From a virus, in the IMG/VR virus record IMGVR_UViG_3300005573_001621: DNA of 64,000 bases. One strand, 5' to 3'. Position 1 is the first letter of the stretch, and the number at the start of each line of letters is the position of its first letter. Made by a program: the position numbers and the translations under genes. Positions 1-6,959 of this stretch are shown here, piece after piece. The notes under the pieces were generated by a model that was given only the letters and a program-made list of their open reading frames with translations, was not told where the DNA came from and did no database searches.

Positions 1-408
1 GAACAGAAAAAAATCGAAGAAGCTATTTCTACCTATAAAGAAAAGCAGAGCTTAGAAGGGCTCTATAAAGAGTTCTGCACTGCAGGGTCTGGGCGCGCTT
101 CAAAAGCTGCAAATGCGCTTGAAGACGCTTTTGCTTTACTTAACCGATTGTTTCAGGCTTTCGCAGACAATATCTCAGAAGCTGAAATACAGTCCGACCC
201 AGAGCTAGGGAAGACATTAGTAGAGAGAATTCAAGAAGAGCGCGCTGAAGTAGAAGAAAATTGGCCGCAGCTTGTTCTTCATTCTTATAGTTTCTTTCTC
301 GGGACTCAAGCGTATGCTGAAGTCTTGCAGGCTATTATAAAAGACTATATTGAAGACACGCTAGTCGCTATAGAGAGCGTGCTCTACAGGGCTGAGGGAG
401 AACAATAG
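1..408 (+). CDS. Hypothetical helical protein, 5' partial
   Basis: Frame of ORF 148..408 is open back to base 1; E/K/L-rich. Confidence 0.7.
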   Translation, partial: EQKKIEEAISTYKEKQSLEGLYKEFCTAGSGRASKAANALEDAFALLNRLFQAFADNISEAEIQSDPELGKTLVERIQEERAEVEENWPQLVLHSYSFFLGTQAYAEVLQAIIKDYIEDTLVAIESVLYRAEGEQ

Positions 409-409
409 A

Positions 410-934
410 GTGCTTGTGGATCTAGAGTTTGATCTTGAGAAAGCTTTACAGACTATTCACTGCCATCGAGAGTTTAATAATACTAGCTGCCCGGGAGAGA
501 AGTTTGAGCTAGAGAGCTTCAAAGCTGTTATTCGTGAGACAGCGAAAGAACATAAATTTGATCTTTTTAAGCTTATTCCAGAGTATCTAGTCGTTCAGCC
601 GACTTCTAGAGTCTGGGAGGAGATTGTTATTCATCATTCAGCTTGTGATGATACCATTCTTTCAGATTGGGAGAGCATTTGGGCTTATCATCTTAAAGAC
701 CGAGGCTGGGGTGCTATCGGATATCACTTTGGTATCGAGAAAGTAAAAGACTTATACGTAATACGCCAGGGAAGGAGCTTGGATAAAGACGGAGTTCATT
801 GCAGAGGACATAATTCAAAAGCAGTCGGAATCGTGTTTGTAGGGAACTTCTCAAAGTATTCTCCGACTCTTGAGCAGCTCCGACTCGGAGCCAAGCTCTG
901 TTTAATGCTTTTCTCTTTAGGGATTGTCAAGTAA
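410..934 (+). CDS. N-acetylmuramoyl-L-alanine amidase (Amidase_2/T7-lysozyme/PGRP fold), circularly permuted
   Basis: IVIHHSA, GWGAIGYHF, GRSL..GVHCRGHNSKAVGIVFVGNF..PT.EQL; the HRE..TSCPG Zn-ligand segment is at the N-terminus. Confidence 0.88.
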   Translation: MLVDLEFDLEKALQTIHCHREFNNTSCPGEKFELESFKAVIRETAKEHKFDLFKLIPEYLVVQPTSRVWEEIVIHHSACDDTILSDWESIWAYHLKDRGWGAIGYHFGIEKVKDLYVIRQGRSLDKDGVHCRGHNSKAVGIVFVGNFSKYSPTLEQLRLGAKLCLMLFSLGIVK

Positions 935-2066: not shown

Positions 2067-2438
2067 ATGAGCAATCTTTTAATTTCTTTACTCTTCTACT
2101 TTGTAGAATGCTTCGGAGAAGAGGGCATCTTCAGACTAGTTTTGATGAGCTTTTTGATGTCTCTTGGTGTTCCCGCACTTCTCACCGTTCTGATCGCTGC
2201 AGTTTTGTACGGACTTTCTCATTTTATTTTGTTCAAGCTCAAGATGGTTTTAGCAAGCGCTGTTTTAGGAATAGTTCTTGGACTGATCTTTCTACTTTTG
2301 TCTCATAACTTAGCACTTGCTTATTTCGTATGCAGCATAGTCCACTTCTTCGCAGGGGTTTGTTCTATTCAGATAGGTTTCACGCACTCACAGATGAGAG
2401 AGGCTTTCTACGATGTCAACGGCAGCAGTGAACAATAG
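2067..2438 (+). CDS. CPBP (CAAX protease/Abi) family intramembrane metalloprotease-like protein
   Basis: About four hydrophobic helices with EEGIFR, LYGLSH and terminal H motifs in family order. Confidence 0.65.
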   Translation: MSNLLISLLFYFVECFGEEGIFRLVLMSFLMSLGVPALLTVLIAAVLYGLSHFILFKLKMVLASAVLGIVLGLIFLLLSHNLALAYFVCSIVHFFAGVCSIQIGFTHSQMREAFYDVNGSSEQ

Positions 2439-3690: not shown

Positions 3691-4584
3691 TTGTCAGGAA
3701 GCACTCGGTTCACGGTTATTACAGACTATTTAGGCGTCTCTGGTTTAGAGAGATATCAAGATGAAACACGCTATTGTAGATACTTAGTACTCGGGATAGA
3801 CCCGGGTTTAGGGATTGGAGGCCACGCAACTGGCATAGAAGGAGTCTCTCTACGAGACGGGACTCAACTTTTAGAATTTCGTTCTAACTCGACTTCACCA
3901 AGATCCGTAGTTGAAAAAGTTTTAACTTCAATATTTTTAGATCCCAGTTTTGAAACTGTCTTAGTTGTTATTGAATCTAATACAATTGGAAAAGACTTGA
4001 TTTCTAGATATCTAGAACTCCCGGAGTTCTGGGAGTCGAAAAAGATTTCTCTCAAACTTCCTCCTTTATATCAGAGTTTTAAGAAAGATCGACAGCCAAT
4101 ATACGGATTTGAAAGCTCGGCCGCTAATAAACAGATGCTAATTGCAGAAGTCCGAGAGCTGATTAAGCAAGATCCGGAGGTGATTAAAAGTCATCGTCTG
4201 GTGAATGAGCTTTTAGGCTTTCAAATTCTCCCTGGAGGAAAGCTCGGGGCTAAGCACGGATCAGCTCGAACTGATGATCTAGTAATTGCTTACGCTTTGG
4301 CTTTGAAAGGGAGACAATACTATTTTCTCCATAGTCCGGATCCAGCCGTGCTGAGAGCGCTGGATTTTCCAGCTGCTACGGCGTCAGCTTCCGAAGCGAG
4401 TTTGCTTCCTTATTTGGGAAGAATACACTACTCTGCAAGCGAAGAGCCTTTGAGAGTTTTTGATCTTGAAAGGGCTCGGCTGAAAGAAGAAATTTGGAAA
4501 GCGATAAGAGCGGGTCAGAACCCTCTTGAGCTGAGAAAAGCTTTAGAAGATCTTAAGCCAGAAGAGAGAAGTATTGCTGAGTGA
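3691..4584 (+). CDS. terL: Terminase large subunit, RNase H-like nuclease domain encoded as a separate gene
   Basis: VLGIDPG, VVIESNTIG, GFESSAANKQMLI, S.RLVNELLGF, DDLVIAYALA as in the T4 gp17 C-domain. Confidence 0.85.
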   Translation: MSGSTRFTVITDYLGVSGLERYQDETRYCRYLVLGIDPGLGIGGHATGIEGVSLRDGTQLLEFRSNSTSPRSVVEKVLTSIFLDPSFETVLVVIESNTIGKDLISRYLELPEFWESKKISLKLPPLYQSFKKDRQPIYGFESSAANKQMLIAEVRELIKQDPEVIKSHRLVNELLGFQILPGGKLGAKHGSARTDDLVIAYALALKGRQYYFLHSPDPAVLRALDFPAATASASEASLLPYLGRIHYSASEEPLRVFDLERARLKEEIWKAIRAGQNPLELRKALEDLKPEERSIAE

Positions 4585-5516
4585 TAGAAAATCTCTCAAG
4601 AGAAGAAATTATTGCAAGAGTTCTCAGGCTCCAGAAGTTGCCAGAGGGCTTTGAAGAGTGGTTCTCTTATGCTAGAGTTGTTCACCCATCAAAGGGACTA
4701 ATAGCTCCTACGTTTTATCCGAAGTTTAAAGAAATTGTCGAAGCTTTAGTCGAAAAACATTATGTAATTATCTTAAAATCTAGGCAGTGTGGTGTCTCGA
4801 CTCTTCTTTCGCTCTTCTCAATCTATGCTGCTTCGCTTTTCCCTGGCTGGAGTGCAGGAGTAATTTCTAGAAGGCGAGAAGACGCAGTTTCTTTTTTAGA
4901 AAAAGGAAGGATTGCAATTCAATATCTGCCTCTTTGGCTGAGGCCCAAGATCTCAACGTGGAATAAGCTTAGCTTGACTTTTTCTCATGCTTCAAAGATC
5001 TTGACTTCGCCTCCCTCGAAAGATGCATTTAGGGGAGAAACACTTTCTTTGTTAGTGATTGATGAAGCTGCTGCTTGCCGTAGAATAGATGAAGTTTATA
5101 CTGCAGCTTATTTAACTCTCTCAAAGAATTTTTCTTCTTTGCAAGAAGCTTCATCAAGTAGGCCAAAAATGCCCTTCGGGATAGTTATTATCTCCACTGG
5201 CGCAGTTTTAGATAATCCTTCTGCGCAATTCTTCTTTGATATGTGGGATAGAGCAATGATGGGAGCTAATAATTTTGTTCCTATCAAAATTCATTGGTCT
5301 GACGTAGGTTATACTCCAGAGTGGAAGATGGAACAAGCTAAAGCTTTAGGAGAAGATCCAGATAAAATTATGACGGAGCTCGAGTGCGGATTTGTTATAG
5401 CAAGGCAAGACGCGATGGTTTTTCCTCCAGACGTCTTAAGAAAAATTCAAACTCAAATTGCTAGAGCAGATCGTGTTCCTTATGAAAGATGGCAAGCTCA
5501 GAAAGTGGGAGTCTAA
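4581..5516 (+). CDS. terL: Terminase large subunit, ATPase domain encoded as a separate gene
   Basis: HPSKG, ILKSRQCGVST (Walker A), LVIDEAA (Walker B), IIST (motif C), FVPIKIHW...ELECGF; GTGA overlap. Confidence 0.9.
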   Translation: MIENLSREEIIARVLRLQKLPEGFEEWFSYARVVHPSKGLIAPTFYPKFKEIVEALVEKHYVIILKSRQCGVSTLLSLFSIYAASLFPGWSAGVISRRREDAVSFLEKGRIAIQYLPLWLRPKISTWNKLSLTFSHASKILTSPPSKDAFRGETLSLLVIDEAAACRRIDEVYTAAYLTLSKNFSSLQEASSSRPKMPFGIVIISTGAVLDNPSAQFFFDMWDRAMMGANNFVPIKIHWSDVGYTPEWKMEQAKALGEDPDKIMTELECGFVIARQDAMVFPPDVLRKIQTQIARADRVPYERWQAQKVGV

Positions 5517-5519
5517 ACG

Positions 5520-6959
5520 GTGCCAGAAGATACTCTTGTTCAGCTTTATCAAGAACCGATTCATGATTCTAAAGTCTCAGTTTTAGTCCCAAGTTTGACG
5601 CTTTACTTTGAGCCTCTATCTGGATCCGGAAAAGAAGAATCAATAACGGTCTTCGGCCAGTCATCTTTAGCATCAGCTTTACTCTGGAGTAGCTGGGGCG
5701 CTCCATTAGCTTTAGTTGCTAAGCAGCAGTCTCATTATGTTGAAAGATATCTCCAAGCTTTGAGTATGTTAGCTTTCTCTTCTAGAGGAGGCTATCTTCT
5801 TTTGAGAGAACTTCCACATTTTTTTAAGCAGAATACTCTGGGCTGCTTAGTTGGAGCTTTTTTAATAGGCGGCGATCTAGAGGTCTCAGCGATCTTAGCT
5901 CAGAGACAAGCTGGCAAGTATGTCACGAGAGTTATTCTTCATTTCCCGGTTGTCAAACAAGCTCAATACGACGAGGGCGGGCTTACGGGGGAGCTTGAGA
6001 TCCGAGACGTAGAGATGTCAGTGATGTTTCAAGGCTTATTCAAGACTCCTTCAAGATCTCCAGCTACGTTTAAGCCGGCTGGATCTCCAATTTCTGACTA
6101 CTATCGATTAGTTTGTGTTGAGTCGAGTCTATTTTCTTCTCTTTGGTATAAGCCAGCTGTAGTGACAACTGCTGAAACTGCTGCTTTACAAAAAATACTC
6201 AGAAGCTTAGCAGATGGGTTTAGCGGCGCATTACAATCAGAAATTACAGTTCCTATTCGGTTTTTTAAGAGTATATTTTTCCCTCAGCAGGCTCGAAGGC
6301 TTGATGTTGTAACAGATGCTTTAGTTGAGACTGCGCTTTCTAAAGGGACTAAAGACTTTCTGCTTGCTGGTAAGTTTTCAGCGATTTCTTTTGGAACAGA
6401 AAAAGGCTTCGGCCTTTTTAAGCTTAAAGACGTTGAAGGGCTTTTAGCAGATGAGAAGAATCAAGAAGCTTTAGATACGCAGATCCCAGCTATATCTCCA
6501 GGAAAGATGAGTGTCTCGGCAGATAAGACTGCTATTCCAGGGACAAAATCTTATCAAGAAGGCAAAGATGCTCTAGCAGGGCCGTCTAGATTCCCAATCT
6601 TCTTTACTCGTAGCGCTGTCAAAGTTTTAGAGTACAGAGAGATTTTTGCTCAAATATCGCCAGATTTTGAAAAAACTTCGAGTTCATTCTTTATTCTCAG
6701 ACTAGAGGCTTCTCAAGCTGCTCGGCTTACTCCAGGGCGAGTACTCCACTTTATTATTTTGCCAAGAATGCTTTATGTTAAGCTGTTTATAGTTTCTGCT
6801 GCTGTTTTATATTACAAAGTTACAGAATCTCCTATTGGAGAGATGGAGGTCATAGGGCTTGAGATCAAAAGAGAGCTGCTATCAGAGGTAGTAGATTACG
6901 AGACACTCGAGTCGATTTCTAAAGCTTTTGAGAAAGAGCTAACTGAAGAAGGGAGCTAA
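5520..6959 (+). CDS. Hypothetical protein, possible baseplate hub
   Basis: Beta-rich; C-terminal LTPGRV pattern loosely hub-like; weak. Confidence 0.3.
   Translation: MPEDTLVQLYQEPIHDSKVSVLVPSLTLYFEPLSGSGKEESITVFGQSSLASALLWSSWGAPLALVAKQQSHYVERYLQALSMLAFSSRGGYLLLRELPHFFKQNTLGCLVGAFLIGGDLEVSAILAQRQAGKYVTRVILHFPVVKQAQYDEGGLTGELEIRDVEMSVMFQGLFKTPSRSPATFKPAGSPISDYYRLVCVESSLFSSLWYKPAVVTTAETAALQKILRSLADGFSGALQSEITVPIRFFKSIFFPQQARRLDVVTDALVETALSKGTKDFLLAGKFSAISFGTEKGFGLFKLKDVEGLLADEKNQEALDTQIPAISPGKMSVSADKTAIPGTKSYQEGKDALAGPSRFPIFFTRSAVKVLEYREIFAQISPDFEKTSSSFFILRLEASQAARLTPGRVLHFIILPRMLYVKLFIVSAAVLYYKVTESPIGEMEVIGLEIKRELLSEVVDYETLESISKAFEKELTEEGS

Follow-up and report, generated by a model that had tools for sequence, protein, structure and literature searches.

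Phage endolysins rely on the Amidase_2 domain as one of their principal catalytic modules, and the same domain is the scaffold of the peptidoglycan-recognition proteins (PGRPs) of animals. In the active site of PGRP-LB and T7 lysozyme, two histidines and a cysteine hold the zinc and a tyrosine is essential, the four residues following one another in PGRP-LB in the order H42, Y78, H152 and C160 (PMC8124813). Non-catalytic PGRPs are also described, and these are devoid of the zinc ligands (PMC8124813). Solved examples of canonical phage enzymes are LysCS/LysC of Clostridium intestinale (6srt, 6ssc) and the amidase endolysin of C. perfringens (7f5i). The segment with the H...CPG motif and the final helix stand last in the chain of the canonical phage proteins.

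Circular permutation has been described for a different group of cell-wall hydrolases, the YaeF/poxvirus G6R and LRAT-like NlpC/P60 proteins (Anantharaman and Aravind 2003, cited in PMC6403190), which are papain-like Cys peptidases of unrelated fold and chemistry. The citing paper, a broad review of cell-wall hydrolases, mentions permutation for NlpC/P60 only (PMC6403190), and a full-text literature search for permuted forms of Amidase_2, PGRP, T7 lysozyme or endolysin domains came back without a relevant report. The literature matches to "circularly permuted" concern phage genomes, NlpC/P60 or the Lipocone superfamily.

Here we describe a gene from a viral metagenome record (IMG/VR IMGVR_UViG_3300005573_001621), of which a stretch of 64,000 nucleotides, hereafter the window, was analyzed. 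The encoded protein has in common with canonical phage Amidase_2 proteins the motifs IxIHHS, GYHFG and HR.F..K/T.CPG.KFD, and resembles the canonical short phage endolysins, such as the metagenomic P0154, P0010, P0012 and P0014, in core sequence (40-49% identity), single-domain size and phage origin. In contrast to these proteins, it has the H...CPG segment and the final helix at the front, with a 20-residue linker behind them, and its chain stops just past the PT..Q helix. The arrangement is like that of the permuted NlpC/P60 proteins in that the catalytic residues swap sequence order with retention, here predicted, of fold and site. The protein is best read as a functional natural circular permutant, a zinc N-acetylmuramoyl-L-alanine amidase of the Amidase_2 fold with predicted activity, a reading to which we assign a probability of roughly 0.8.

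Results

The gene is complete and extends from position 410 to 934 on the + strand, with a GTG start codon and a TAA stop codon at 932-934, encoding a protein of 174 aa (P0001) that is present on 4 contigs. A Shine-Dalgarno-like sequence, GAGGGAG, was read at 394-400 (+), 9 nt 5' of the start codon and within the 3' end of the upstream ORF that stops with TAG at 406-408. The genes are tightly packed, with the upstream stop at 408 and the next gene from 937. Residues 13-49 (446-556, +), comprising strand 16-18, H19, C27 and helix 34-47, are the counterpart of the C-terminal segment in canonical Amidase_2 domains based on a custom profile and alignments with PDB sequences. Residues 46-68 (545-613, +), delimited by a four-way alignment of permuted proteins and by AlphaFold2, form a linker from the old C-terminus to the old N-terminus that is poorly conserved save for an ...R.W motif at its end belonging to the canonical N-terminus; residues ~46-66 are not conserved in the four-way alignment, and each of the four permuted proteins has ~20 residues that the canonical profile does not cover. 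Residues 69-174 (614-931, +) constitute the domain core, with strand 71-76 that contains H75, followed by Y105 and helix 154-169, as defined by Pfam, the custom profile and the ESM Atlas. H19 (nt 464-466) and C27 (488-490) are located in HCHREFNNTSCPG, H75/H76 (632-637) in IVIHHSA and Y105 (722-724) in GYHF, each at the position where the first-pass annotation of the window had placed it. The same annotation had described a protein that stops just after the PT.EQL helix, which is borne out by a chain terminating five residues past PTLEQL (helix 154-169 of the model), the point at which canonical relatives go on into the strand preceding the second His.

The match to the Amidase_2 family is significant, residues 69-167 aligning with positions 5-104 of the 131 in the Pfam profile PF01510 (37.1 bits, cut-off 26, E = 4.6e-9). 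Since the match ends at profile position 104, the last 27 positions are without a partner at the C-terminus of the protein. Residues 1-60 and 1-68 gave no Amidase_2 match in Pfam even at E ≤ 10, and a DUF5398 match of the N-terminal piece (E = 0.14) was dismissed as chance. A phmmer search of PDB sequences aligned residues 13-41 out of order with the C-terminal residues 128-166 of 6srt, 7f5i and 4z8i, and in this second stretch the His and the Cys each align with their counterparts; the N-terminal segment was placed on residues 141-166 of 6srt and 128-153 of 7f5i. Because the Pfam model has too little power at its end to detect the N-terminal piece, a custom profile was built from 232 canonical single-domain homologues, and the scores that follow are on this profile of canonical relatives rather than on Pfam's own model. 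The native protein aligned as two out-of-order domains with 174.9 bits in all, residues 13-49 matching profile positions 133-169 (30.1 bits) and residues 67-168 matching positions 25-126 (145.3 bits). When the core and N-terminal segment were rejoined in silico in the canonical order, a single collinear domain was obtained with 172.9 bits over profile positions 27-164, versus 145.5 bits for the core alone and 145-146 bits for the core joined to a shuffled or reversed segment. Rejoining also restored one collinear domain for the related proteins P0005 and P0007, with P0006 remaining as two collinear pieces. The N-terminal segment alone scored 32.5 bits versus a maximum of 6.1 bits for 2000 shuffled versions and 3.3 bits for 755 natural 46-aa sequences taken from the other ORFs of the window. 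Since these segment scores far exceed those of the shuffled and natural controls, the swapped order is real and far beyond chance. The proposal in the first-pass annotation that a segment with two of the three Zn ligands sits at the N-terminus is therefore upheld, with 30-32 bits for the segment, and the check that it had named, a better score of the rejoined sequence, is passed with the 172.9-bit domain. In the canonical order, the strand with the first His ligand (His1) and the Tyr precede the strand with the second His (His2) and the Cys, with a final helix; here residues 13-49 precede His1 at residue 75. The protein was classed as a permuted variant rather than an ordinary member because this order of elements is the sole departure from the Amidase_2 family.

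Proteins of the same order were identified with HMMER among 1.84 billion representatives, which yielded at least three more permuted clusters (P0005, P0006 and P0007); all other matches listed are canonical. The three proteins, of 167-183 aa and 39-43% identity, are collinear with the query over residues ~10-173 and show H.HR...CPG first and IxxHHSA and GY[HN][FY]G later, ending right after the last core helix. They derive from contigs of JGI 3300033149 and of ENA assemblies ERZ27236675, ERZ23486261 and ERZ18638592, and the two P0007 contigs, from separate assemblies, differ by one synonymous base within the gene. In total, the permuted order is found in six loci from different assemblies. A six-frame check of the fetched loci revealed it in four lineages only, the other amidase ORFs (91 of 91) being canonical. 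All four permuted proteins share H19, R20, C27, P28, G29, H75, H76, S77, A78 and Y105 without variation. The sharing of order and residues by these relatives argues that the permuted order is inherited and conserved as opposed to a one-off rearrangement. The family is tiny and rare, with at least four clusters among the matches listed from the 1.84 billion representatives searched. No further permuted members were detected in IMG/VR viral contigs, one-genome-per-species prokaryotes or JGI metagenome contigs, and no prophage copy was detected in the one-genome-per-species prokaryote data. Two phage tblastn matches, H1 and H2, that align residues 14-168 in one piece proved canonical, with an N-terminal extension aligned by chance; P0100, P0220, P0058, P0024 and P0167 and the loci L011, L057, L059 and L060 were likewise set aside as canonical.

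The window derives from a metagenome assembly, which raises the alternative that two parts of an ordinary amidase gene were joined in the wrong order during assembly. Over 1500 bases, the window is matched exactly by an ENA assembly (112.7 kb contig) and by the Logan assembly of a public run, and contigs of two Logan runs labelled "hot springs metagenome" cover positions 1-2000 with zero differences, although these two runs are possibly the source sample and hence not fully independent. The three assemblies, produced with differing software, agree base for base. Furthermore, the GC content is even across the gene with no compositional break, and the diverged homologues from other metagenome assemblies keep the permuted order. 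Since the assemblies are identical and diverged homologues from other assemblies share the order, a misassembly between 410 and 934, which the first-pass annotation had raised as a possible objection, is excluded, leaving a probability for the artefact that is practically nil. Two DNA runs, and no RNA sequencing runs, are listed as carrying the sequence of the window.

AlphaFold2, supplied with an alignment of 148 sequences of which four rows only cover the N-terminal segment, predicted one compact domain with a mean pLDDT of 91.5 and a pTM of 0.88. The N-terminal segment has a pLDDT of 92-98 and the linker, with a short helix at 52-55, a pLDDT of 79-92. The predicted elements are strand 16-18, helix 34-47, the linker, strand 71-76, helix 86-97, strands 107-112, 115-120 and 138-143, and helix 154-169. 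In Foldseek searches the model matched PGRPs, T7 lysozyme and phage amidase endolysins, all with a probability of 1.0, over ~110-130 columns only and with a TM score by query of 0.46-0.56. The partial cover is explained by the sequential nature of the aligner, the remaining segment being at the other end of the chain. Matches in the ESM Atlas and in the AlphaFold DB clusters span residues ~57-66 to 174 only, the best being an ESM Atlas amidase model aligned over residues 66-174 (109 residues, rmsd 1.4). No full-length match of the same topology was found in the ESM Atlas or AlphaFold DB clusters with these sequential aligners, a result that is weak evidence of rarity because the aligners are sequential and the libraries are incomplete.

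The relationship between the two parts was further evaluated with ESMFold2 by predicting residues 1-57 and 58-174 as separate chains with Zn. The split-chain score was 0.76, versus 0.01 for the best of 3 controls; in a calibration performed without ligand, 51 of 78 solved complexes attained this mark, as did 2 of 108 mismatched pairs. The runs agreed in at least 81% of contacts, with a partner pLDDT of at least 72. The most confident contacts paired residues 15-19 with residues 70-75 of strand 70-76, placing H19 with H75, and residues 36-45 with residues 154-165; among them were 16-19 with 72-75 and 37-45 with 157-165. The pass may reflect likeness to solved Amidase_2 structures. Nonetheless, the predicted contacts support the canonical geometry, in which the His2 strand lies beside the His1 strand and the last helix lies on the PT..Q helix. 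The zinc-site geometry is thus a predicted one, read from contact lists rather than distances. The predictions show a sheet flanked by helices in which the His2 strand adjoins the His1 strand, in agreement with a natural permutant that folds as one domain.

That the two pieces associate as separate chains in the split-chain prediction is also compatible with a real order in which the active site is completed in trans, as in a dimer or oligomer formed by domain swapping, where the core of a subunit would be complemented by the N-terminal segment of a different one and activity might be controlled by oligomerization. Circular permutants and duplication intermediates can domain-swap. Against this proposal, the AlphaFold2 monomer, with a pTM of 0.88, places the segment in cis, and the linker, at ~20 residues, can span the distance between the old termini within one chain. 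Completion in trans is considered unlikely, and a site formed within one chain is preferred.

For the single-chain permutant, the following pathway from sequence to site is proposed. The strand-loop-helix that ends the canonical domain, with the second His and the Cys ligands, would be encoded first (H19 and C27), and the ~20-residue linker would then lead to the rest of the domain with H75 and Y105. On folding, strand 16-18 would take its place next to strand 71-76 in the central sheet, with helix 34-47 packed on helix 154-169, rebuilding an ordinary H/H/C zinc site. The chemistry would be unchanged, namely cleavage of the MurNAc-L-Ala amide bond, and is presumably ordinary.

The four active-site residues align with the zinc ligands and catalytic Tyr of canonical proteins. 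H75 corresponds to H17 of T7 lysozyme and H42 of PGRP-LB, Y105 to Y46 and Y78, H19 to H122 and H152, and C27 to C130 and C160, respectively. The predicted fold and the Zn His/His/Cys site with Tyr are thus like those of T7 lysozyme (1LBA, 1ARO) and Drosophila PGRP-LB (1OHT, 7NSX), but in sequential structure comparison with these proteins the permutant aligns over ~110-125 residues only, because one segment is at the other chain end. T25, two residues before C27, occupies the position of K128 in T7 lysozyme. A Thr at this position is the state in catalytic PGRPs. The spacing of H19 and C27, 8 residues, equals that of H152 and C160 in PGRP-LB (PMC8124813). The statement of the first-pass annotation that all catalytic residues are present has held, these residues being unchanged across the four permuted lineages. 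With all three ligands invariant, and with non-catalytic PGRPs lacking zinc, the protein is best read as a catalytic amidase; it is therefore predicted to bind zinc and to have amidase activity, and the conserved residues suggest an active enzyme.

The window belongs to a large tailed phage, a T4-like myovirus, with a T4-type portal, an 881-aa tail sheath and a T4-type terminase; its DNA is found in runs labelled hot springs metagenome. The sheath and terminase are only 25-30% identical to those of any cultured phage, the cultured T4-like myoviruses being distant. All ORFs of at least 120 aa judged real in the window (1-64000) are on the + strand. The terminase region (window 3691-6959) contains a 311-aa ORF (4581-5516) with the Terminase_6N T4-type ATPase signature, flanked by ORFs of 297 and 479 aa with no Pfam matches, and the large terminase may be split or unusually organized. 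Abutting the amidase gene, the ORF at 937-1434 encodes a HAD-like hydrolase with a DFDGV motif and weak Pfam Hydrolase matches; it also matches a PHROG labelled phosphoheptose isomerase and may be an auxiliary gene for cell-envelope sugar phosphates.

The amidase gene lies among structural and packaging genes, with the tail sheath upstream and the terminase downstream, and no holin or spanin was recognized beside it in the window. In the phage contig L005, the gene for the permuted protein P0006 is followed by a 99-aa multi-TM holin-like ORF and then by a 120-aa spanin-like ORF (L005 8635-9297). The former has two or three hydrophobic helices and the latter an N-terminal TM segment and a coiled coil, the likeness to holin and spanin having been judged by eye from TM segments only. 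The location of this relative directly upstream of holin-like and spanin-like genes makes an endolysin role likely, and the protein is most likely the endolysin of its phage. Both contigs also encode, a few kb or less from the permuted amidase, a small (~120 aa) multi-TM protein of the Rce1-like/CPBP family (window 2067-2438 and L005 5106-5471); this proximity could be coincidence, or the protein could represent an accessory of lysis or immunity. No synteny was found between the window and L005, and the neighbors of the permuted gene differ in each phage, indicating that the gene moves as a self-contained module.

The position among tail and packaging genes, with no holin recognized alongside, also allows for a virion-associated or other role. 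On this alternative, the protein would be a folded but non-lytic permutant, either a virion-associated protein for peptidoglycan binding or entry, or a regulator. T7 lysozyme, which inhibits T7 RNA polymerase, is a model for the latter. Nothing points to RNA polymerase binding, or to an immune role such as that of PGRPs, in the permutant. The existence of non-catalytic PGRPs is a precedent for loss of activity, but those proteins are without zinc ligands (PMC8124813) and all three are invariant here. The different neighborhood in each phage, with no common synteny, and the resemblance of the L005 neighbors to a holin and a spanin likewise argue against a non-lytic function, which is regarded as highly unlikely relative to that of a lytic amidase.

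The origin of the permutation was investigated with a tree of the four rejoined permuted proteins and 233 canonical proteins. The permuted proteins are monophyletic (support 0.79) with the canonical protein P0154 (153 aa) as sister (support 0.93), and the clade together with P0154 is nested among canonical amidases. Nesting of the four-member clade among canonical sequences points to one permutation event, in a subfamily of short phage amidases, after which the lineages diverged for a long time under constraint. The break point falls in the loop joining the PT..Q helix to the strand ahead of the second His, with the old termini bridged by ~20 residues. Circular permutants usually originate by tandem duplication, fusion and trimming. 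In this family, a gene probably duplicated in tandem, the copies fused in frame and the outer parts were then lost. Tandem canonical Amidase_2 paralogues of the wider subfamily occur at L061 3434-4885 and L062 1661-3200, and also at L066, L068 and L069. Those of L061 and L062, on a high-GC metagenome contig, are in the same reading frame with one stop codon between them, and fusion and trimming of such a pair would yield the permuted order. The tandem genes indicate that the raw material for permutation occurs in nature. No duplication intermediate was found within the permuted clade.

Tandem genes also bear on the interpretation that the gene is a remnant in decay, in which the 3' end of one amidase gene was joined to another copy truncated at its own 3' end, with an open frame and a non-working product. 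Tandem genes are natural, deletions between them would give exactly the permuted order, and the family is very small. However, the order has been kept in four lineages at 39-43% identity with the Zn ligands and catalytic Tyr invariant, none of the permuted copies contains a frameshift or stop, the predicted models are confident and compact, and the context in L005 is like that of a lysis cassette. A remnant is thus very unlikely. The earlier view of an intact natural permutant and not a pseudogene is well supported by the conserved order, the invariant residues and the one confident predicted domain (pTM 0.88), with H19 set against H75 in the split chains and with the order shared by P0005, P0006 and P0007.

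Discussion

The results are probably the first recognition of a natural circular permutant of the Amidase_2/PGRP fold, which would represent a small phage-borne clade of working endolysins whose segment with two zinc ligands was probably transferred from the C- to the N-terminus by duplication and truncation. Evidently the fold tolerates a re-threading that opens new termini between the PT..Q helix and the His2 strand, with the catalytic residues kept. The family also exposes a blind spot of annotation in that profile searches report only a C-terminally truncated domain, so that a permutant could be dismissed as a pseudogene. With a small family and presumably ordinary chemistry, the finding is a solid curiosity rather than a new mechanism. 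It offers a clean example of permutation by what appears to be duplication, and would be useful for the engineering of endolysins, for instance by providing new fusion points for binding domains. If the reading is true, the clade would provide a natural test case for the tolerance to re-threading of a scaffold widely used in lysins and immune receptors.
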